A DNA stretch of 31,755 nucleotides from Candidatus Falkowbacteria bacterium (GTDB taxonomy: Bacteria > Patescibacteriota > Patescibacteriia > UBA2591 > JABMQE01): assembly GCA_013203415.1 (NCBI GenBank), contig JABMQE010000106.1, positions 1-31,755 of the forward strand, read 5' to 3'. Numbering within the stretch: position 1 is the first letter of the stretch; each line of letters begins with the position of its first letter. A program made the translations under genes and the position numbers. The notes beneath the pieces were generated by a model. The model was not told where the DNA came from. It searched no databases and saw nothing but the letters and a program-made list of their open reading frames with translations. Below, one piece after another: positions 5,677-30,045 of the stretch.

Positions 5677-6030
5677 ATGGAAAAGTTTCGTTCTCTTAAG
5701 GTGTGGCAAAAATCGCATTACTTAGTTTTGGAAGTTTATAAAGTTACCAGAGACTATCCGGATTTTGAGAAATTTGGTTTGGTGTCTCAGATGAGAAGAT
5801 CTTCTGTTTCTGTTGTGGCTAATATTGTTGAAGGTTCGAAGAAAGTTAGTATAAAGGATAGAAAACATTTTCATGTGATAGCCGATGCTTCATTAGAGGA
5901 GTTAAAATATTATTTTATTTTAAGTTATAATTTAAAGTATATTGATTCTGAGGTTGGGAAGAAACTTATGGAATGTGCAAGGGAGGTAGGTCGAATGCTT
6001 TCAGGATTAACTAAGTCTTTAAGTAAATAA
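5677..6030 (+). CDS. Four helix bundle protein (23S rRNA IVS protein / bAvd-like family)
   Basis: F.SLKVWQKSH.L..EVYK...YP..EKFGLVSQMRRSSVS...NIVEG signature, 117 aa, strong SD AAGGAGGTGA at 5663-5672. Confidence 0.9.
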   Translation: MEKFRSLKVWQKSHYLVLEVYKVTRDYPDFEKFGLVSQMRRSSVSVVANIVEGSKKVSIKDRKHFHVIADASLEELKYYFILSYNLKYIDSEVGKKLMECAREVGRMLSGLTKSLSK

Positions 6031-6043
6031 TTTGTCGTAAGGT

Positions 6044-6076
6044 ATGCTTACAGCTTACGGCTTATAGCTTATGGCT
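6044..6076 (-). repeat. Heptamer array (NNGCTTA)n, right flank, inverted relative to 5585-5626
   Basis: ATGCTTA CAGCTTA CGGCTTA TAGCTTA TGGCT. 6053-6071 is the exact reverse complement of 5606-5624. It overlaps the next ATG at 6071. Confidence 0.9.
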
Positions 6077-7258
6077 CGCATTGGTATAGATATTCGTTCT
6101 CTTCTTGAGGGGTATCGGACAGGGATAGGAGAGTATACGTATAATTTAATTAATGAGTTTTTGAAAAAGGATACTGAGAGTGAGTATCATCTTTTTTATA
6201 ATCAAAGGCATTCTATAAAAAAAGACCCGCCTAAGTTTGAGAGTCCTAATGTTAAAGTTTTTGATTATAAATATCCCAACAGGTGGTTTAATTTGTCGCT
6301 TAGATATTTTGGATGGCCGAGGTTGGAGAAGTTGGATGGTGAGCCTGATGTTATGTGGTATCCAAATTTTGGATTTATAAATTTTAATATTAAGGTACCG
6401 TATGTTTTAACTGTTCACGATTTGTCGTTTGAGAGGTATCCGGAGTTTTTTACCCGTCCTCATCGGTTATGGCATAAGCTTATAAATTGTCGGCGTATGG
6501 CTAGAGGCGCAACAAAGGTTATAGCTGTTTCTGAAAATACTAAGCGGGATTTGATTGAGTTGTATGGGGTGGATGAGGGAAAGATTGAGGTTGTATATGA
6601 AGGAATTGATGCGAAACTACGAAAAGAATGCGAAACTACCCGCCTCGCCAAGACGAGCTTGGCTCGTCGAGGCTGGGCGAAAATGCGAAAGGTTCAGGAA
6701 AAGTATAATTTGCCGGAGAAGTTTGTTTTGTTTTTAGGAACGATTGAGCCGAGGAAGAATATTGAGGCAGTCATTAGGGCTTTCGATAAGGCGAGTTACG
6801 AGTTCCCGAGTTACGAGTTACTATTAGCCGGTGGTAAGGGTTGGAATAATAAGGGGATTTATGAGATTCATAATAAATTGAAAAATAAAGACAAGATTCG
6901 GTTTTTAGGTTATGTAGAGCACGAGGAAAAGCCGGCTTTGTATAAATTGGCATCTTTGTTTGTTTTTCCGTCTATTTATGAAGGATTTGGTTTGCCGCCT
7001 TTGGAAGCAATGGCTTGCGGGACGCCGGTGATAACGAGTAATGCTTCGTCTTTACCCGAAGTGGTAGGGGATGCTGGTTTAATGGTTAATCCTTATAATA
7101 TAAACGAATTGGTGGAGGCGATGAAGGTGATGTTGTCTGACGCGGAGTTGAGACAGAGGTTTATAGAAAAGGGACTTGCGAGAGCGCAGAAATTTACATG
7201 GGAGAGGTGTGCGGAGAAGACGTTGGAATTAATACAGCAGATTAAAGCAGATTTTTAA
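6071..7258 (+). CDS. Glycosyltransferase family 4 (mannosyltransferase-like)
   Basis: [44 protein letters not shown]. Contains repeat-derived in-frame segments. Confidence 0.93.
6609..6694 (+). repeat. CGAAACTA-type dispersed repeat (copy 1) with nested 39-bp hairpin (6639-6677), in frame in CDS
   Basis: ATGCGAAACTACGAAAAGAATGCGAAACTA[CCCGCCTCGCCAAGACGAGCTTGGCTCGTCGAGGCTGGG]CGAAAATGCGAAAGGTT. Confidence 0.85.
6792..6820 (+). repeat. Heptamer array CGAGTT(A/C) x4 within CDS
   Basis: CGAGTTA CGAGTTC C CGAGTTA CGAGTTA, encoding SYEFPSYEL. Confidence 0.65.
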
Positions 7259-8392: not shown

Positions 8393-8451
8393 TTAAAATA
8401 AGAATTCATAAAATCATAAAATCACAGAATCAAATTGATTTATTGTTTTCT

Positions 8452-8488
8452 CCCGCCCGGCTTCGTTACGCGAAGCGTTGCGGGCAAG
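8452..8488. repeat. CCCGC...GCGGG-CAAG palindromic element (intergenic)
   Basis: CCCGCCCGGCTTCGTTACGCGAAGCGTTGCGGGCAAG. Confidence 0.75.
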
Positions 8489-8515
8489 TGTTTTATTGAT
8501 TTTTTGAAGTTTTCC

Positions 8516-11188
8516 ATGCCTAAAAAAACGATAGCGAAAAAAAAGAAGACCCAGGCAAAGAAAAGGCCTTCTAAAACAAAAAAAACATTAAGGCTAAAAA
8601 AGAAGAAGACAGCTTTAAGTTCGCGAGAAAAGGTTTCGGTTTCTTTCGGGCCTTCGAATGTTTTGGACAAAAAAGAAGAAAAGGAGCAGGAGTTTTTGGA
8701 AACCCGTGAAGAGCAGGCAGAGGTGCCGCAGTTTAGGGAATTAGTTTGGACTGATTTTTATAATCAAGAAAAACAGGTAGAGAGTACGAATCTTTTCCAA
8801 TCGGACAGCAGTTTGAATTTTATTTCCAGAAAAAATAAATCTTTTTCTTTTATAAATCTTTTGGCGAGTTTGCCTAAAGATTTTTTTGTTTTTTATGGGA
8901 AAAAAATAAAGATAGTATTAGGAATAACCCAGTGGACATTAGAAGAGATAGGGAAGCTTCCTTTTAGATTAATTTTGTGGATTTTAAGTTTTTTGGAGCT
9001 TTTTTTAGCACGGCCGATTTGGCATTTTCTTTTGATGATAGCAAAGAAGTTTTGGTTAAGCTTAAGGCATGTTCATGCTTATCTTTTTTGGATGATAAAA
9101 AACGGCATATTAACGATTTTTGGCTTGCCGGGGAAAACGGCCAAGTTCTTAAAACCAGCGCCAACAAATTATTGGAGCCGGGGATTAGTGTCTTTTGTTT
9201 TGGCTTGTTTGATAATTGTTTTGCCGTTTGGGACATATACTTATATAACCAAATTAAAAGATACGCAGGGCCTGGTTTTAGGGGCGGCAACACAGGCGTA
9301 TGAGCAGTTGCAAGCGGCGCAGGCGGCGACGAGCGAGCTTGATTTTGAAACAGCGGGTGAGGAATTTAGAAAGGCGGACGAAAGTTTTGGCATGGCCAAG
9401 GAGAGATTGGCGAATATTGATTTTTTGATTTCCGGGATAATTAATAATTTATCAAAAGGAAAGGCGGCAGGGAAGCTGCTTGAGACCGGAGAATTAATTT
9501 CCGAAGCAGGGGTAGAAATGAGTGAGGGGCTGGCGATTTTGAGCGAACATAATACGGATGATTTAGATGATGCCGTGTCTGGCGGCAGGCAGGTTGATAA
9601 TACAGATATGCCGATGCATGATATTGATTTGGGAGTGAGCGATAAGATTAAAATACTCGAAGACAAATTTTCTCGGGCTTACCCTAAAATAGTTTTGGCC
9701 AGGAAGAATATAGAAGAGATAGATCCAAAGATTTTGCCCGAGGCCAATCAAGATAATTTTTTTGAGATGAAGGCAAAGATTTTGGGGGTTGAGGCGGTAG
9801 CAAAAAAACTTTATTCTTTTTCAAAAATAATTTCGGAACTTTTTGCAATCGACACATCAAAAAGATATTTAGTGGTTTTCCAAAACGAGGACGAGCTTCG
9901 GCCGGCTGGAGGATTTATGGGAAGCTTTGCTTTATTAGATGTTTTGGATGGGAAAATCAGCCAGATAGAGATACCGGGCGGCGGGCCGTATGATTTTCAA
10001 GAATCTTTGGTAAAAAGAGTGGCGCCGCCAAAACCATTACAGCTAGTGAATAATCAATGGGAGATGCAGGATGCCAATTGGTTTGGCGATTTTGAAACTA
10101 CTGCAAAGAAGATAATGTGGTTTTACGAAAATTCCGGAGGCCCGACGGTCGACGGGGTTATAACAATTACTTCGGGCCTGATTCCGCCTCTTTTGGAGAT
10201 TACTGGTCCTATAGAAATGTTGGAATACGACAAAGTGATAACTGCAGATAATTTTCAAATAGAAACCCAGCTGGCTGTGGAATTGGAGTATGATAGGGAA
10301 GAGAATCGGCCAAAGCAGTTTATAGCAGATTTAACGCCTAGGTTGTTGGAAAAACTTATCAATCTAAAAAGCGACAAGCTTATAGACCTTTTAGGGGTTA
10401 TTGATTTAGGTTTGACCCGCAAAAAAATAATGTTTTATTTTGGGAATGACCAGGTGCAGGCAGAGGCGGTAGAAAATAATTGGGCCGGTAAAATTAAGCA
10501 AGTAGGGGAGGAGGATGATTTTCTTTTGGTTTTGAACGCGAATATCGGAGGGGGTAAAACAGATAACGTGATAACCCAGAAGATAGTCCACGAGACAGAG
10601 GTTTTGGAGAATGGCGAGGTAGTGGATACAGTAACAATTATTCGAACTCATGGCGGGGGGGCAGGATACTTTTTTGCCAACCGAAAGAATATTAATTATG
10701 CAAGGGTTTATGTGCCTCAAGGGAGTACTTTAATCGAGGCAAAAGGTTTTTATAATATGCCGGAAAGTTCTTTTAGGGAATTGGCTCCTGCTTTGGGCAA
10801 GGACAGCGAGTTAGAGAAAATCGAGGGACAGGTTTTGGTTGATGAGGTAACAGGGACAAGAATTACGACGGAGTTTGGGAAGACGGTTTTTGGCAACTGG
10901 ATGATTTTGAATCCAGGTGAGACAACAGTATCCAAGTTTAGATATCGTTTGCCTTATAAATTAAATTTAAGAATAGATGATGGGGAGAGATCTTTGATAT
11001 ATGCATTATTAATCCAGAAGCAGGCAGGAACAAAGGATGATGAAATAGAAAAAATAATAATTTTGCCTAAAAATTTTAATTCGGTTTGGAAATATCCAGA
11101 AGAAGATTATATAGGGGAATATGAGGGAATGGTTAAGTTTAAGTCCAATCTGGTGACAGATAGGTATTATGGGGTTGTTTTTAGGTGA
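8516..11188 (+). CDS. DUF4012-domain membrane protein
   Basis: RYLVVFQNEDELRPAGGFMGSF, DANWFGDF, DGVITI, NANIGGGKTD, NYARVYVP motifs, with a basic N-terminus and TM segment. Start reassigned to MPKKT at 8516, since the TTG extension crosses a repeat element. Confidence 0.85.
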   Translation: MPKKTIAKKKKTQAKKRPSKTKKTLRLKKKKTALSSREKVSVSFGPSNVLDKKEEKEQEFLETREEQAEVPQFRELVWTDFYNQEKQVESTNLFQSDSSLNFISRKNKSFSFINLLASLPKDFFVFYGKKIKIVLGITQWTLEEIGKLPFRLILWILSFLELFLARPIWHFLLMIAKKFWLSLRHVHAYLFWMIKNGILTIFGLPGKTAKFLKPAPTNYWSRGLVSFVLACLIIVLPFGTYTYITKLKDTQGLVLGAATQAYEQLQAAQAATSELDFETAGEEFRKADESFGMAKERLANIDFLISGIINNLSKGKAAGKLLETGELISEAGVEMSEGLAILSEHNTDDLDDAVSGGRQVDNTDMPMHDIDLGVSDKIKILEDKFSRAYPKIVLARKNIEEIDPKILPEANQDNFFEMKAKILGVEAVAKKLYSFSKIISELFAIDTSKRYLVVFQNEDELRPAGGFMGSFALLDVLDGKISQIEIPGGGPYDFQESLVKRVAPPKPLQLVNNQWEMQDANWFGDFETTAKKIMWFYENSGGPTVDGVITITSGLIPPLLEITGPIEMLEYDKVITADNFQIETQLAVELEYDREENRPKQFIADLTPRLLEKLINLKSDKLIDLLGVIDLGLTRKKIMFYFGNDQVQAEAVENNWAGKIKQVGEEDDFLLVLNANIGGGKTDNVITQKIVHETEVLENGEVVDTVTIIRTHGGGAGYFFANRKNINYARVYVPQGSTLIEAKGFYNMPESSFRELAPALGKDSELEKIEGQVLVDEVTGTRITTEFGKTVFGNWMILNPGETTVSKFRYRLPYKLNLRIDDGERSLIYALLIQKQAGTKDDEIEKIIILPKNFNSVWKYPEEDYIGEYEGMVKFKSNLVTDRYYGVVFR

Positions 11189-11246
11189 CGAGGCATTAGT
11201 GATTAGTAGATTATAAAAAAGCTTGTTTGGGGTTGTATTTAGAACC

Positions 11247-11275
11247 TTGACAGGTTTTTTTATTTATGCTATTAT
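11247..11275 (+). promoter_or_regulatory. Sigma70 promoter with extended -10
   Basis: TTGACA(11247-52)-N17-TATTAT(11270-75), with TG at 11267-68. No convincing CDS downstream. Confidence 0.7.
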
Positions 11276-11281
11276 TATGTA

Positions 11282-11398
11282 TTAGTAATCAGCCAATAAA
11301 TTGGAGGATTAGCAAGGGATATCCTCCTTTCTCTTGTTCTCCGCTTTTGCGGAGGTCCTGCTTTTGTAGGATTTCTAGTCCTCCGTTTTATTGGCTCT
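11282..11398 (+). ncRNA. Candidate small structured RNA (four-way junction on a ~22-bp basal stem)
   Basis: Pairings: 11291-11312 with 11375-11396, 11313-19/11330-36, 11338-44/11349-55 and 11356-61/11366-71. G-U pairs are compatible with the + strand. Confidence 0.6.
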
Positions 11399-11400
11399 TA

Positions 11401-11473
11401 ATGCGAAACTACGAAAATAATGCGAAACTACGAAAATGCGAAAGGTTGGTTAATGCGAATTTGTGAAAGGTTG
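11401..11473 (+). repeat. CGAAACTA-type dispersed repeat (copy 2, uninterrupted)
   Basis: ATGCGAAACTACGAAAATAATGCGAAACTACGAAAATGCGAAAGGTT plus a degenerate tail. Confidence 0.85.
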
Positions 11474-11494
11474 TTGTTGACTTTTTGAGAGGAT

Positions 11495-11524
11495 AAAAAG
11501 ATCCCGTTTTGAGGCGGGGTTTTT
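11495..11524. terminator. Probable bidirectional terminator between the sRNA unit and hicA
   Basis: AAAAAG-ATCCCGTT-ttga-GGCGGGGT-TTTT. Confidence 0.65.
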
Positions 11525-11526
11525 GT

Positions 11527-11742
11527 TTATATTAAATCTTTTTTTGTTAAACCAGATTGTTTGAGAATTGAGATGATTGTGCCTTTTGGTAAATCTTTAG
11601 TGTGAAAAGGGATAACAACTCTTTTTAAGGAAACGGGGTGTCTTAAGATGATGTGGCTGCCAGTGGTATGGTCGGTTAGAAATCCTTTTCTTTGAAGAAT
11701 TAGTAGCAACTTTTTAGGAGTGAGCACAGGGAGTTTAGGCAT
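11527..11742 (-). CDS. hicA: HicA-family toxin (mRNA interferase)
   Basis: 71 aa, MPKLP...GF......GSHIILRH.....VVIPFH.KDLPKGT..SILKQ with the catalytic His in GSH. Confidence 0.92.
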   Translation of the reverse strand: MPKLPVLTPKKLLLILQRKGFLTDHTTGSHIILRHPVSLKRVVIPFHTKDLPKGTIISILKQSGLTKKDLI

Positions 11743-11983
11743 GTTTTTGTTTTATTTTTGGCACTAATTGAATCGAGCTAATGAAACTTGTCTCATCAGA
11801 TGGAATTGCTTCATCATGTTTTTTTAAGCTTTCAATATAGCCCAAAATCGCATCTTTGGCCATTTCTTTTGCTTCGGCTAAATTTTTACCATAAGTAATG
11901 CAACCGGGCAGAGAGGGTACAATAACTGTAAACCCACCTTCGGGTTCTGGTTTGAAAATTAGATTGTAATTTAAGGTGTTCAT
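11735..11983 (-). CDS. hicB: HicB-family antitoxin (short form)
   Basis: EPEGGFTVIVPSLPGCITYGKNLAEAKEMAKDAI. Overlaps the hicA start by 8 nt. Start likely MNTL. Confidence 0.92.
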   Translation of the reverse strand: MNTLNYNLIFKPEPEGGFTVIVPSLPGCITYGKNLAEAKEMAKDAILGYIESLKKHDEAIPSDETSFISSIQLVPKIKQKHA

Positions 11984-12175
11984 ATTTTTATGATATAGCA
12001 TAAAAATGACTAAGTCAAGTTTATTAACTTTTGATTGGGGTGAGAGCGGGTTTTTGTGGGTTATTTTTTTGTTTGACTTTTGGGTTTTAGCATGTTTAGA
12101 TTAAGGCGGAGGCATGATCTTTGTAAAAGCCGAGAAGAGAACTCACATAGAGGTTTTACACTGGGAGGAAGAAAC

Positions 12176-13030
12176 ATGATTACCTTAAGTAATGGTCATC
12201 AGATGGATTTTTTAGTATCCAGCGGTGCTTTGGCTTATTCTGGTTATGGTTGGCCTTGGGATTGGCCGTTGGTGTGGTCTGGGGTTATTAAGCCAGAGGA
12301 GTTTACCATTGATACTAAGTCCTTTACCAGATATTATCGTGAGGGCAATTATCGGTGGTATCGGCCTTGGTCTGTGCTTAGGCCGCTAGCTGGTGGTTGC
12401 TGGGTGAATTCGTTTGGGCTTAGTAACCCAGGGTTGGCATGGGGACTTAGAAAGTTTAACCCTTATCCTTGGGAAGACCTGAACATCATTCTCTCCATCT
12501 TCCCAACCAGCCCCGAGGAGTGTTCGGAGATGTGTCAGATGGCCGAGGGGGCTAAGATTGTCGGTATTGAGGTCGATGTTTCTTGCCCCAATGTTGACTC
12601 TACGCGCGGGGTGGTCTCAATTTGTAGAGCAGCCAAAGAGTCCACAAGCATTCCTTTGATTGCCAAGTTTGGTTATCAACATCCTACTTGGTTGATTCGG
12701 GAGGTGGCTCCGTATTTTCAGGCACTGCATCTTATCAATGCTGTGCTCTGGGCAACAGTGTTTCCGCACAAGAAGTCGCCGCTTGCCAGATATGGCGGCG
12801 GCGGGGTTTCTGGTCCAATTATCCAGCCTTTTTGCGAGGATAAGCTGAAAGAACTCGCAGGGGTGGGTGTGCCTATCATCGCAGGAGGTGGGATTGACTC
12901 GATTGAGGTGGTGAAAAGGTATGCAGAACTGGGAGCTTCGGCTTTTAGTTTCGGTACCTTGTTTCTTAACCGTCCCTGGGAGCCGAATAGGATTGCCAGG
13001 AAGTGGCGGCAGAATTCTCTGTCACTATAA
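12176..13030 (+). CDS. pyrD: Dihydroorotate dehydrogenase, class 1-like
   Basis: TKS.T...REGN, NSFGLSNPG, catalytic VSCPN, GGVSG, IIAGGGI, GASAFSFGT. SD GGAGGA precedes MITL at 12176. Confidence 0.85.
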   Translation: MITLSNGHQMDFLVSSGALAYSGYGWPWDWPLVWSGVIKPEEFTIDTKSFTRYYREGNYRWYRPWSVLRPLAGGCWVNSFGLSNPGLAWGLRKFNPYPWEDLNIILSIFPTSPEECSEMCQMAEGAKIVGIEVDVSCPNVDSTRGVVSICRAAKESTSIPLIAKFGYQHPTWLIREVAPYFQALHLINAVLWATVFPHKKSPLARYGGGGVSGPIIQPFCEDKLKELAGVGVPIIAGGGIDSIEVVKRYAELGASAFSFGTLFLNRPWEPNRIARKWRQNSLSL

Positions 13031-13047
13031 CGACATGGAGGTGAGGT

Positions 13048-14094
13048 ATGGCTGATACGATTACTTTGCGTCGGTTCTTTGACGCACATGTTCATTTTCG
13101 GCAGGAGTGGCTTCTGGCTTTGATGTTGTCATTCATATCGCGGTATGCCAGGTACGGAGTGGCAATGCCGAATACTCGTCCTGCTATTTTGACCGCACAG
13201 AACGTTGTGCGGTATCGCGAACTGATTCAGCAGGTGTTTGTGACCCAGCCGATTCAACCTGCTTTTGAACCGTTAATGACCATCGAGATCAGGGATAACA
13301 CAACGCCCGAGATGGTTGTGGCGGCTTTCGAAGCTGGTGCAGTCGCGGGTAAGGTTTACCCGCTTGGCACCACTACGAATTCGGATGAGGGTCTGCGTGA
13401 CTTCTTTTCTCCGAGTATCGGGGAAACATTCCGAGCTATGGAGGAAATCGGGATGCTCCTTCTTATCCATGGCGAGTTGGATGGGGAGCGAGTTTTGGTA
13501 ACAGAGCGGGAGCATGTATTCTTGCCGACGTTGCCACTACTTCATCAGTCCTTTCCGGGTTTAAAGATTGTGCTTGAGCATGTTTCTACTAAGGAAGGGA
13601 TAGAGATGGTGGAGCAGCTCGGCGAGAATGTGGCCGCAACCTTAACCCCGCATCACTTGTGCACAACGCTTAACGATGCCATCGGGTATGGTGTCCGGCC
13701 GCACAATGTCTGGATGCCGATATCTAAGGGCTTCGATGATCTTGACGCTCTCTTGGCAGCGGCAACCAGCGGTAAGGGATATTGTTTTCTTGGCTCGGAC
13801 ATCGCAGCGCATCGGATAGGGGATAAGGAATGTGCTGTTGGTAAAACCGGCGGCTTTACAGGGTCTTTGGTTCCTTCGCTCCTGATGAAGATTTTCAAGG
13901 AGCAAGGGTGTCTTGATAAGATTGATGGCTTTGCCTCGGGTTTTGGTCCGAGGTTCTATGGCTTAGATCCTATTGTGGAGACAATGGAGATGGTCAGGGA
14001 ACTCTGTGTAGTGGAGGAGCAGTATGGCGAAGGGGACAATGTTGTCGTACCATTCATGGCAGGGCAGGAGTTTGAGTGGCAGTTGGCTGCGTAG
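13048..14094 (+). CDS. pyrC: Dihydroorotase, homodimeric (E. coli-like) type
   Basis: DAHVHFR, AMPN, KVYP, TTNS, HGE, LEHVST, TPHHL, LGSDIAAH. SD GGAGGTG. Confidence 0.92.
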   Translation: MADTITLRRFFDAHVHFRQEWLLALMLSFISRYARYGVAMPNTRPAILTAQNVVRYRELIQQVFVTQPIQPAFEPLMTIEIRDNTTPEMVVAAFEAGAVAGKVYPLGTTTNSDEGLRDFFSPSIGETFRAMEEIGMLLLIHGELDGERVLVTEREHVFLPTLPLLHQSFPGLKIVLEHVSTKEGIEMVEQLGENVAATLTPHHLCTTLNDAIGYGVRPHNVWMPISKGFDDLDALLAAATSGKGYCFLGSDIAAHRIGDKECAVGKTGGFTGSLVPSLLMKIFKEQGCLDKIDGFASGFGPRFYGLDPIVETMEMVRELCVVEEQYGEGDNVVVPFMAGQEFEWQLAA

Positions 14095-14136
14095 CTGCGC
14101 GGTAAGTTCGTGAGTTTGGGGGTACTCACACGATCG

Positions 14137-14180
14137 AAAGGTGGTTTATCTGAACAGCGATGTTCGGGAAGCCACCTTTT
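14137..14180 (+). terminator. Long terminator-like hairpin after pyrC
   Basis: AAAGGTGGTT..TCTGAACA-GCGA-TGTTCGG..AGCCACCTTTT. Confidence 0.55.
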
Positions 14181-14198
14181 AATATTGAGGTGATAAAA

Positions 14199-14251
14199 AA
14201 ATAGATGCCACTATAGTGGCATCTACAATGCCATCATGATGGCATCTATTT
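14199..14251. repeat. Tandem perfect palindromes ATGCCA-N6-TGGCAT x2
   Basis: TAGATGCCACTATAGTGGCATCTA (14202-25) and ATGCCATCATGATGGCAT (14228-45). Confidence 0.85.
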
Positions 14252-14560
14252 ATTTTCTTTGGTATCTTCTTGGGCTAATCGTTCATCAGGTGAATAAAGG
14301 CGGTTTTTTATGCGCCAACGGCTGGCGAACTGGCCGATTCCTTTTTTATGAAACTGGCCAGACCGGCGGGCTGATTTTTGGGACCAGGAAATTAAATCCT
14401 CAAAATTTATTTTGTAGCGTTCGCGGACTACAATATAACGAAGTTCTTTGCTGGTTATTGCTTTTCTAATAGTGGCAGTGGAAACCCCAAATAGTTTGGC
14501 TGCTTCGGATACTGATACTCTGATTGGTTTAATTTCTGGAGTCATTGGTGTATTTAACAT
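14246..14560 (-). CDS. Excisionase-like helix-turn-helix DNA-binding protein (HTH_17-like)
   Basis: VSVSEAAKLFGVSTATIRKAITSKELRY....RYKINFEDL. Confidence 0.85.
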   Translation of the reverse strand: MLNTPMTPEIKPIRVSVSEAAKLFGVSTATIRKAITSKELRYIVVRERYKINFEDLISWSQKSARRSGQFHKKGIGQFASRWRIKNRLYSPDERLAQEDTKENK

Positions 14561-14569
14561 TAAAATAGA

Positions 14570-14597
14570 TTAAGTTGTACAATATTGTATAACTTAA
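14570..14597. promoter_or_regulatory. 28-bp near-perfect palindrome, putative operator upstream of the HTH gene
   Basis: TTAAGTTGTACAATATTGTATAACTTAA, about 10 bp from the HTH start. Confidence 0.5.
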
Positions 14598-14649
14598 GTT
14601 GATTTTAACATAAAAGTGTTTAGTCGTCAAAAAGTTATGCACAGAGGTT

Positions 14650-14698
14650 GACAATTAACAATTAACAATTAACAATTGACAATTGATAATTGACAATT
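14650..14698 (+). repeat. Heptamer array (G/A)A(C/T)AATT x7
   Basis: GACAATT AACAATT AACAATT AACAATT GACAATT GATAATT GACAATT. Confidence 0.9.
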
Positions 14699-14700
14699 AG

Positions 14701-14729
14701 TTGATAGAATAACGCAGGTGAGGTATAAT
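14701..14729 (+). promoter_or_regulatory. Sigma70-type promoter for the ECF sigma gene
   Basis: TTGATA(14701-06)-N17-TATAAT(14724-29). Confidence 0.55.
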
Positions 14730-14791
14730 ATTAAGAGTTTAATACTTTTGTAATATTTTGTAACATTTTTTGATTTTTCACGTCTAATATA

Positions 14792-15334
14792 ATGAAATTG
14801 AAATTTTTAGAGAAACGTTTAATACGCAAAATTCAGAATGGGGATGCAGAAGCATTTGCCCAGGTTTATGACGCGTATATTGATAAGATCTATAAGTTTA
14901 TCTATTATAAGGTAAGAACGCAAGAACAGGCCGAGGATTTGACAAGCCAAGTTTTTACAAAACTTCTGGAATATATTCTTTCTGGCAAGGAGATAGAAAA
15001 CCTTCAGGCATTAATTTATCGAGTAGCTAGAAATCAAGTTGTTGATCATTATCGAAGTTCGAAAGTGGAAGTGCCAATCGAATTTGCAGTGCGGGAAACA
15101 GCAGTATCTTTCGAGGCAGAAATAGGCAAAAAAGAAGGATTGATGGAGATTGAAAAAGCACTTAGGAAATTAAAAGGGGAAATTAAAGAAGCAATGCTTC
15201 TTAGATATATAGATGATTATTCGATACGGGAAGTAGCAGAGATTTTAGGAAAAAGCGAGGGTTCGGTAAGAGTGATGATTCACCGGGCGAGGAAAGAGAT
15301 AAAAGGCAAGTTACTAAACAAGGATAAGGGCTAG
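14792..15334 (+). CDS. ECF-type RNA polymerase sigma factor
   Basis: GDAEAF..VY..Y.DKIY.FIY, AEDLTSQVF, IYRVARN..VDHYR, and region 4 YSIREVAEILGKSEGSVRVMIHRAR. Confidence 0.93.
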   Translation: MKLKFLEKRLIRKIQNGDAEAFAQVYDAYIDKIYKFIYYKVRTQEQAEDLTSQVFTKLLEYILSGKEIENLQALIYRVARNQVVDHYRSSKVEVPIEFAVRETAVSFEAEIGKKEGLMEIEKALRKLKGEIKEAMLLRYIDDYSIREVAEILGKSEGSVRVMIHRARKEIKGKLLNKDKG

Positions 15335-15358
15335 TTATTTAAAATTTTTCTTATGAAA

Positions 15359-15512
15359 AAAGAAAAGGGAAGGTGGCTTAACTAATTATTTAAGCATTCT
15401 CTTTAACTATTAATGAAGAGGGTCAGATCTTGGGGATTGCCATAGATGGCTTATACTTAATCCCCGACAAACATTTATCATCAAAGATTTGTCCTGCCAC
15501 CTCCTTTTCTTT
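15359..15512. other. Multibranch structured element between the sigma and anti-sigma-like genes
   Basis: 17-bp closing stem 15359-77/15496-15512 (2-nt bulge) enclosing hairpins 15397-15422, 15432-65 and 15466-93. Confidence 0.45.
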
Positions 15513-15548
15513 GAGCTAATTATTTTCTTAAATATTTAATTATTAATT

Positions 15549-16760
15549 GTGTCAGTTAAAATAGAGGACAATATAAAAGGATTAAAGAGGGTTGAAGCGA
15601 GAATAGAGTTTAAGAAGGATTTAAGGGAAGATTTGATGAGGAGAGTAGAATTACGCAAACCCGAAAAAGCAGGTGGTTTTTGGAGTTTTAATATATTTAA
15701 TTTTAGAATCTTAAAGCACGCCTATGTGCCAGTGGCATTAGGCGTTTTTATGCTTGTTTCAAGCAGTTTTTTGGCAGTAAAAGCGGCAGGAGACAGCTTG
15801 CCCGGTGATTTACTGTATCAAGTTAAAATGGCTTCGGAAAAGGCCCAAGTTGGTTTTGCGTTAAGCCAGACAAGCAAAGTACAAAAAGAAGTTGATTTTG
15901 CCGGAAAAAGGCTGGAGGAGCTAAATAAGCTAACAGGAGCAGTTGATAGCCAAGAAGATAATAGTGATCAAGAGGAGGAGAAAAAAGAACTTGAATCAGA
16001 AGCGATTGCCGGGGCAGTGCATAGTTTTAATAAGGAAATTAGCAAAGTAAAAAATAGATTAGATAATTTAGATAAAAATCAAGATGATAAAGCAGTGGAA
16101 GTGGCCAGAGTATTTGACGGGAAAGCAGGAGAATTTGCCACTGCCTTAAATCAGGTAGCAGAAAAAGAGGATTTGCCAGATGAGATAAAAGATAAAATAA
16201 TAATAGCTATTAATGCTTTAGACGAGGTAGCTAGCCAAGTTTTGGGAGTGATGATAAAAGACCAGGAAGGTATAGAGGGGTTAGAAAGAGAGGAGTTGGT
16301 TAAACGTTTGGAAGAGAAGATTTTGGCAACAGAGACGCGGGTGGCTAGTGTTGACGAAATAGTGGCTGGAAAAGGATTGTTGGATGATGAGCAGGGTATT
16401 TTATTATCGATTACTAAAAAAGTGGAATTAGCCAGAGTTATATTAAACGAAGCCAGAGAGTGTTTGGCAGATGAGAGGGATTTGGAAATGGTTTTAAGGA
16501 AAGTGAATGAAAGTAATGATTTGGCCAGTGAAGTGACAACAGAGCTGGCTAAGGAAGATGATGATGAGGATGTGATTGTGGATGTGGTCGATGGCGACGA
16601 AGAACTAGACGACGATAACGGTGATGACGTGGATGATGAGCAAGCTGAGCTCGATAGTGATGGGGATGTGGTTGATGACGGTGATGGCGAAGAAGGAGAA
16701 GAAGATCGAGCTGAGCTCGATGATGAGCAAGCTGAGCTCGATAGTGATAACGAAGAATAA
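15549..16760 (+). CDS. DUF5667-type membrane protein (putative anti-sigma factor) with acidic tail
   Basis: One TM followed by AAGDSLPGDLLYQVKMASEK. Helical C-terminal domain. Asp/Glu tail with a 30-bp exact duplication (16632-61, 16719-48). The GTG start is uncertain. Confidence 0.75.
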   Translation: MSVKIEDNIKGLKRVEARIEFKKDLREDLMRRVELRKPEKAGGFWSFNIFNFRILKHAYVPVALGVFMLVSSSFLAVKAAGDSLPGDLLYQVKMASEKAQVGFALSQTSKVQKEVDFAGKRLEELNKLTGAVDSQEDNSDQEEEKKELESEAIAGAVHSFNKEISKVKNRLDNLDKNQDDKAVEVARVFDGKAGEFATALNQVAEKEDLPDEIKDKIIIAINALDEVASQVLGVMIKDQEGIEGLEREELVKRLEEKILATETRVASVDEIVAGKGLLDDEQGILLSITKKVELARVILNEARECLADERDLEMVLRKVNESNDLASEVTTELAKEDDDEDVIVDVVDGDEELDDDNGDDVDDEQAELDSDGDVVDDGDGEEGEEDRAELDDEQAELDSDNEE

Positions 16761-25892: not shown

Positions 25893-26017
25893 TGTTTTTT
25901 ACTTGACTTTTGATAAAGATAGTAGTAACATATAAGTATAATTTAGATTACTTTTTTAAATAAGACTTTTGCCAATTTTAGAAGAATGTGGTGTGGTCTT
26001 ATTTTTTATTTATATTA

Positions 26018-26064
26018 ATACGAAACTACGAAAAGCATGCGAAACTACGAACATGCGAAAGGTT
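26018..26064 (+). repeat. CGAAACTA-type dispersed repeat (copy 3)
   Basis: ATACGAAACTACGAAAAGCATGCGAAACTACGAACATGCGAAAGGTT. Confidence 0.85.
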
Positions 26065-29961: not shown

Positions 29962-30018
29962 TACGAAACTACCCGCCTCGACGAGTCAAGACTCGTCTTG
30001 GCGAGGCGGGCGAAAATT

Positions 30019-30045
<27 letters not shown>
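29961..30045 (+). repeat. CGAAACTA-type dispersed repeat (copy 4) with nested 39-bp hairpin (29972-30010); supplies the ATG of the next gene
   Basis: ATACGAAACTA[CCCGCCTCGACGAGTCAAGACTCGTCTTGGCGAGGCGGG]CGAAAATTATGCGAAACTACAAAAATGCGAAAATT. Confidence 0.85.

Follow-up and report, generated by a model that had tools for sequence, protein, structure and literature searches.

The locus lies in a window of 31,755 nucleotides (the window being the whole stretch of DNA that was analyzed) of a Candidatus Falkowbacteria bacterium, the genome of which (G000) amounts to 1.03 Mb in 142 contigs and is 95% complete. It is bounded upstream by a glycosyltransferase/DUF4012 cluster, with GT4 genes upstream of the DUF4012 gene, and downstream by a convergent hicBA pair, beyond which a pyrD/pyrC-like pair follows. 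The DUF4012 gene is the conserved upstream neighbor of the RNA described here and served as its synteny anchor. The nearest named relatives of its protein are found in Patescibacteria (e.g., Magasanik-, Buchanan-, and Kerfeldbacteria), and orthologs with 56-67% identity were found on other contigs. The comparison included G001, which is the genome of a sister genus and the only other member of the family, and L113, a Logan contig from a G001-like organism. The following features were identified:

8435-11188, + strand: DUF4012 gene (Pfam PF13196), last gene of the glycosyltransferase cluster
11247-11275, + strand: sigma-70-type promoter, with TTGACA at 11247-11252, a 17-nt spacer, and TGc-TATTAT at 11270-11275
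11291-11312, + strand: 5' strand of the basal stem (P1a 11291-11300, bulged U 11301, P1b 11302-11312), with a Shine-Dalgarno (SD)-like GGAGGA inside
11313-11336, + strand: hairpin 1, a 7-bp stem with the 10-nt loop UAUCCUCCUU at 11320-11329
11339-11354, + strand: hairpin 2, variable in length and here a 6-bp stem with a UUUU loop
11355-11372, + strand: hairpin 3, a 7-bp stem with a UUUU loop
11375-11396, + strand: 3' strand of the basal stem, with a second anti-SD-like stretch, GUCCUCC, inside
11399-11469, + strand: copy of a dispersed repeat, TAATGCGAAACTACGAAAA twice and then degenerate units (tandem repeat finder)
11497-11524, both strands: intrinsic-terminator-like hairpin, 12 pairs and a T run, abutting the hicA stop
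11527-11742, - strand: hicA (Pfam HicA_toxin), convergent, outside the RNA
11735-12001, - strand: hicB (Pfam HicB_lk_antitox), convergent, outside the RNA

The runs in which the RNA locus was found were four DNA runs, all from one freshwater study; no RNA run was among them, which does not count against expression. A 41-nt stretch of hicA (11582-11622) was matched, with four differences, by longer and deeper contigs in 4/4 metagenome runs, which points to a related hicA in a more abundant organism of the same community.

The original prediction had placed a TTGACA-N17-TGnTATTAT promoter in front of the RNA. This promoter was found, with a score of 11/12 and the TG extension in a promoter scan, and transcription is predicted to start near position 11282. 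Sites of such quality occur 34 times genome-wide vs. 2-4 times (about 3) in composition-preserving shuffles, an approximately 10-fold enrichment, so that, judged by its sequence, 11247-11275 is very likely a real promoter. In the local region the number of promoter-like sites was not above chance. The promoter core was also detected in G001/L113 and in L084, a contig with a 56% DUF4012 ortholog that ends 40 nt beyond the promoter. In both genera the promoter ends 7-16 nt upstream of the basal stem; the G001 homolog possesses two tandem promoters, the second of which ends about 9 nt before the stem. The core was rejected as a marker for the RNA, since it is a general consensus of the order and is also found at hrcA/CIRCE. 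In L034/L035 (genomes G024 and G025), an hrcA-like gene is preceded by the order-wide core TTGACA-N-T-rich-ATTTATGCTA and CIRCE-like inverted repeats, arranged in tandem. A member of a different family within the order (L036, G016:C17; minus strand, starting around position 1503) has the same consensus promoter, followed by an RNA-like region of about 150 nt with a long closing stem, UUUUCCCUG...CAGGGAAAA.

Downstream of the promoter, positions 11291-11396 of the + strand (106 nt) fold into a near-perfect four-way junction (-57.9 kcal/mol, z -9.9). The slightly longer segment 11288-11400 (113 nt) has a single dominant structure, and its MFE and centroid structures are the same. The basal stem of 21 bp (10 + 11, with one bulged U per side) closes three hairpins, and the junction linkers contain only 2 + 0 + 2 unpaired nucleotides. 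All of the elements that had been proposed from the sequence, i.e., the basal stem, two hairpins with UUUU loops, and one with a UAUCCUCCUU loop, were recovered. The minus strand of the junction is 16 kcal/mol worse (-42.0 kcal/mol, z -7.6). The claim that five G-U pairs work on the + strand only was borne out as well: the junction of the source genome has five G-U pairs and no A-C mismatch. In G001 there are three G-U pairs and one A-C, and that single C-A is C-G in L113. The G-U asymmetry and the better fold of the + strand agree with the proposal that a structured RNA is read from this strand.

A bistable fold had also been suggested, in which GGAGGAU pairs with AUCCUCC. The complementarity exists, but the resulting fold reaches -41.8 vs. 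-57.9 kcal/mol, i.e., it is 16 kcal/mol worse. The hairpin-1 loop is at least 0.9 unpaired in the ensemble, and the RNA is thus not bistable at equilibrium; according to the folding model the alternative pairing may at most be a co-transcriptional intermediate. In the modeled structure the basal stem and the two UUUU-capped hairpins are a rigid scaffold. With near-perfect helices and almost no unpaired nucleotides at the junction, the modeled architecture would offer few possibilities for sensing a ligand.

Across the whole window, none of the Rfam 15 families reached its gathering score, in a comparison that included 6S, SRP, RNase P, tmRNA, riboswitches, epsC/EAR, twister-sister, and RsaE. 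At E<=10 nothing meaningful was detected in 11100-11650; the best model overlapping the junction was a miRNA model (14.7 bits, E 2.5). No tRNA or tmRNA genes were identified in the window by ARAGORN, and the Rfam search and ARAGORN together support the earlier statement that the RNA does not match tRNA, SRP, 6S, or tmRNA. Several other assignments were considered and rejected. An EAR-like antiterminator of polysaccharide operons was dismissed because there is no Rfam epsC match and because a terminator and a convergent operon follow. An RNA partner of hicAB was dismissed because the RNA does not overlap the hicA coding sequence and no hicAB is found near the G001/L113 homolog. A riboswitch or gene-specific leader was not accepted either: the downstream genes vary (convergent hicA, an orphan ORF, Fic), and the linkers leave only the few unpaired nucleotides given above.

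The original prediction had offered a mobile structured element as one possible identity, and this did not hold. The junction is single copy in the source genome, and no target-site duplication was found at the RNA ends, which are flanked by AATCA and TCTTA. For the same reasons (one copy, flanks not duplicated) a MITE or REP-like dispersed palindromic element was rejected. An integration site was rejected because no direct repeat of the RNA 3' end was found within 11200-16000.

A covariance model built from the source sequence alone identified one true match among the 55 species genomes of the order, on contig C70 of G001 (57.5 bits, E 1e-12). The homolog is syntenic, as it is located 3' of the orthologous DUF4012 gene, and 97.6% of cells are paired when it is aligned to the model. 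L113 carries the same RNA as G001 with one difference, the C-A mismatch mentioned above having become C-G. Between G000 and G001, eight pairs have changed on both sides (hairpin 1, four of the seven; hairpins 2 and 3, two each), vs. 0-3 in slid controls; this count rests on three distinct sequences and one partial variant from one family, too few for a statistical test. In the basal stem 16 of the 21 pairs are invariant, so that its sequence is conserved and shows no covariation. Hairpin 2 is about 70 nt long in G001, which indicates that the tip of hairpin 2 is dispensable.

A third variant, about 85% identical, was found on a 232-nt contig from run X2 of the source metagenome, which covers 11289-11396 and was compared apart from the outer 30 nt on each side. 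In its hairpin 2, U-A is replaced by C-G at 11340/11353, with a register shift that keeps the hairpin; in hairpin 3 a C>U change at 11357 gives a U-G pair. The hairpin-1 loop reads CCCUCCUCCU in G001 and UCAUCCUCCUU in the metagenome variant, and its core, CCUCCU, is the sole unpaired motif kept in G000, G001/L113, and the metagenome variant. The search for homologs that had been proposed as a check came out in favor of the fold, since a second genus keeps it by means of compensatory changes and also keeps the CCUCCU core. Taken as a whole, we consider it probable that this is a genuine structured RNA.

The remaining matches in the 55 genomes of the order were spurious (the one in G008 is a plain hairpin and the one in G010 is inside a coding sequence). 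A two-sequence model searched against 151 genomes of the class returned only AT-rich hairpins with E values expected by chance. The distribution of the RNA is thus 2/55 genomes of the order and 0/150 other genomes of the class. Exact-pattern scans with the 5' strand (genome, metagenome, and viral contigs) and with the 3' strand (genome contigs) gave matches that were all negative with the model. By these sequence searches, the element is a putative lineage-specific non-coding RNA gene, so far of one Patescibacteria family, previously undescribed and with no Rfam family. As nothing was found beyond the family, the RNA appears to have arisen, or to have been inserted, at the border of a variable region in this one family.

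The genes on the 3' side differ. In G001 the RNA is followed by an orphan gene and MurJ. The orphan, a 208-aa ORF of G001/L113, is led by an AAGGAGG site on the same strand and starts about 80 nt 3' of the junction; no relatives beyond itself were found for the G001 gene. The contigs of the 67% and 64% DUF4012 orthologs end 16 and 70 nt past the gene, and on a 10,727-nt ENA contig (sample ERZ24794676) with a 64% ortholog a gap of 355 nt precedes a co-directional Fic gene. In the 45-48% orthologs a large CLIPPER-like gene is located immediately 3', with no intergenic gap. The segment 11527-14560 of the window contains hicBA, a DHO_dh-like gene, a second gene without a Pfam match, and an HTH_17 (excisionase-like) gene on the minus strand. 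These genes, together with the CLIPPER-like gene directly 3' of the distant orthologs, suggest an insertion region that begins at the RNA. In L113, a gene with a weak Y1_Tnp match (IS200/RAYT-like, 6010-6627) lies some 3 kb 3' of the RNA and might have a bearing on the palindromic repeats seen in the family.

The 3' end of the transcript had been predicted at a T-tailed hairpin beside the hicA stop. This hairpin is present (12 pairs plus the T run), and on the minus strand it reads as a CCCG...CGGG hairpin and then UCUUUUU; judging by its sequence, transcription of the RNA and of the convergent hicBA operon could both stop here. No terminator was found in the window between the DUF4012 stop and the junction, and none is present in G001/L113 between the junction and the next ORF.

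The segment between the junction and the terminator is largely repeat DNA. The 19-mer TAATGCGAAACTACGAAAA and its relatives were found at about 30 loci in the source genome, with copies also in G001; the repeat is absent 3' of the G001 homolog. In the source metagenome, contigs break at 11399-11469, and the word depth rises from 7 to 143-200. Based on the number of loci, the contig breaks and depth jump, and the absence from the sister-genus homolog, these ~70 nt are a presumptive later insertion of a mobile repeat rather than a functional module. The single dedicated transcript of about 240 nt that had been envisaged could not be upheld: about 70 nt of it are a mobile repeat without a counterpart in the homolog, and the homolog has no terminator and runs into a gene.

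Further copies of the repeat family were observed in the window at 6606-6700, 26015-26064, and 30011-30042, and some copies are inside genes, e.g., a GT4 gene (6071-7258). The repeat is built of ATGCGAAA/CTACGAAA-type units, often with the GC-rich palindrome CCCGCCTCG...CGAGGCGGG.

Other structured sites were also noticed. A second multibranch fold (z -2.9) was observed in the window at 15335-15548, in the interval that separates an ECF sigma gene from the following gene. Its closing strands are GGAAGGUGGC/GCCACCUCCUUUUCU, and the 3' strand resembles the 16S 3' tail (CACCUCCUUU). On contig C125 of the source genome (L117:815-960, minus strand) a three-way junction is followed by a U run, with no Rfam match; one of its hairpins has a 13-nt loop, UCCCUCACCUCCU, with the 16S-tail core inside. 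Upstream of this junction come three copies of a CCTTCCAGAAGTCTGCGGCC unit and a long hairpin whose counterpart in G001:C45 is maintained by compensatory changes. At the G001:C45 site, no three-way junction was seen.

The loop core CCUCCU is the anti-SD sequence of 16S rRNA. An exposed anti-SD-like loop had been part of the original prediction, and both the predicted exposure (at least 0.9 unpaired) and the conservation of the core in all versions agree with it. The 16S 3' tail used for comparison was read from the sister genus G001. Its 3' end, GGAUCACCUCCUUUCU, matches the source RNA at 11317-11332 (GGAUAUCCUCCUUUCU) in 14/16 bases, and the metagenome variant reads GGAUCAUCCUCCUUUCU, which is the 16S tail with one extra U. 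The G001 RNA has only CCUCCU in common with the tail, and the extended likeness is absent. About 180 ORFs of the source genome have GGAGG 3-10 nt before the start codon. Neither Hfq nor CsrA was found in this 95%-complete genome.

Pairing with ribosome-binding sites is the best-supported mechanism, given that the sole exposed conserved loop is anti-SD, that Hfq and CsrA were not found, and that about 180 ORFs are led by GGAGG. The following scheme may be proposed. The promoter would start transcription about 9 nt before the 106-nt four-way junction, and the rigid scaffold would present the 10-nt pyrimidine loop in single-stranded form. The loop would then pair with GGAGG-type ribosome-binding sites and block 30S docking. 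This pairing would be Hfq-free, as in the sRNAs with C/U-rich loops of Gram-positive bacteria and alpha-proteobacteria. In the source genome the RNA would end at the terminator and act in trans; in the sister genus it would run into the orphan gene with its AAGGAGG site, and it could also act in cis.

As the mode of action of the RNA, anti-SD pairing is a tentative proposal, to which we give somewhat less than even chances. A duplex scan for targets returned generic GGAGG/SD sites only and no specific regulon, so that the target prediction suggested earlier ranks generic SD sites and does not discriminate. These generic targets, together with the absence of a terminator and the SD-led orphan gene in G001, help to hold the proposal at this level. 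Unless its level were kept under tight control, a loop able to match every SD would make for an unusual regulator with no selectivity. The small number of sequences precludes a statistical test of covariation, and the basal stem is conserved and never covaries. The missing likeness to the extended 16S tail in G001 also speaks against the proposal, and the SD-led ORF about 80 nt downstream of the unterminated G001/L113 junction fits a cis-acting leader equally well.

The latter alternative is that the element is the 5' leader of whichever gene follows, with the promoter and the junction together forming a portable platform for expression that borders a variable region. The stable structure at the 5' end would guard the mRNA from 5' decay and/or the CCUCCU loop would fold back on the downstream ribosome-binding site; the copy in the source genome would be an orphan, with its gene replaced by the repeat, the terminator, and hicBA. 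In addition to the same-strand orphan ORF of G001/L113, the Fic gene beyond the 355-nt gap is consistent with this, as is the stretch GAGAGGAUA at 11481-11489 of the source genome, which is complementary to the loop and lies just before the terminator. However, the downstream gene differs in each genome (none, orphan, Fic), which argues for no conserved gene-specific regulation. The source genome has a clean terminator and a convergent operon, and the junction offers almost no unpaired conserved nucleotides to sense a ligand. We therefore regard a cis-acting leader as unlikely.

It could also be argued that there is no dedicated RNA function. The element would then be a cluster of hairpins serving as 3' end or insulator of the DUF4012 operon, or a palindrome at the level of the DNA, next to a variable region, that one family has retained by descent. 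Such an explanation would account for the very narrow distribution (2/55 genomes of the order, 0/150 other genomes of the class) and for pattern scans of genome, metagenome, and viral collections that gave chance matches only. Palindromic repeats abound in the genome, a good fold is predicted for the minus strand too (z -7.6), and, without a terminator after the DUF4012 stop, read-through transcripts would end in the junction. On the other hand, both genera have a promoter just upstream of the stem, only the hairpins show compensatory changes, and the G-U pairs are asymmetric. The element is single copy, its ends lack target-site duplications, and the unpaired loop motif is conserved. A structure without an RNA function is thus distinctly unlikely.

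Two further readings start from the likeness to 16S rRNA. According to one of them, which we hold to be quite improbable, the RNA would imitate the structure of the 16S 3' tail from a rigid four-way scaffold and belong to a larger, undescribed group of such RNAs in Patescibacteria, competing with ribosomes for SD sites or for tail-binding factors. If this were true, it would amount to a global throttle on SD-led translation, e.g., of horizontally acquired genes, for reduced-genome bacteria without Hfq and CsrA. In the other reading the loop would not pair with mRNA but act as a decoy: a protein or nuclease whose usual role is to bind or process the 16S 3' end would recognize it, or the loop would contend with ribosomes for such a factor. 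The 14/16 matching bases, the one-U difference of the metagenome variant, and a scaffold more elaborate than a pairing sRNA needs are in line with this. It is nevertheless very doubtful, as G001 has only CCUCCU in common with the tail (extended mimicry of 16S is thus not conserved), the RNA is not linked to any candidate partner gene, and the flanks of the 16S look-alike are base-paired in the hairpin stem.

No regulatory RNA of the Candidate Phyla Radiation is known to have been characterized by experiment, and none was found in the literature searched. A promoter-driven RNA, conserved through compensatory changes, that displays the mRNA-docking sequence of the ribosome would give a concrete and testable entry into post-transcriptional control in uncultivated bacteria with reduced genomes. 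The weight of the present example is moderate, as it is confined to one family.

Pairing of an exposed loop with ribosome-binding sites has counterparts in well-studied bacteria. RsaE/RoxS (Rfam RF01820) and RNAIII of S. aureus come from bacteria that do not depend on Hfq and bind G-rich ribosome-binding sites through single-stranded loops rich in C. Their motif is CCCC/UCCC, whereas the loop described here contains the full CCUCC; theirs are simple hairpins in contrast to the four-way junction, and no match to RsaE/RoxS was detected in Rfam at E<=10. The csRNAs of streptococci, which are CiaR-dependent, carry unpaired anti-SD and anti-AUG stretches (PMC3091779). They are likewise small, promoter-driven, and Hfq-independent, with an unpaired stretch complementary to the SD (PMC3091779); for the RNA reported here these properties are predictions. 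In the csRNAs the anti-SD and anti-AUG stretches separate two stem-loops. The present RNA instead carries its anti-SD motif within the loop of a hairpin, has no evident anti-start codon, and is not homologous to them. In the alpha-r14 sRNAs, CCUCCUCCC aSD motifs are located in hairpin loops on variable stems and mRNAs are silenced at the RBS, and NfeR1 blocks the ribosome-binding sites of several mRNAs (PMC10746234). The alpha-r14/NfeR1 sRNAs (and the CcsR 'cuckoo' sRNAs) of alpha-proteobacteria likewise have unpaired CCUCCUCC-type anti-SD loops on stems that vary freely, and the G001 loop, CCCUCCUCCU, may be set beside this motif. No match to alpha-r14/NfeR1 was found by sequence or by model, and the phylum is a different one. 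They possess three aSD loops and the RNA described here has one, with its hairpins joined in a four-way junction by a 21-bp stem.
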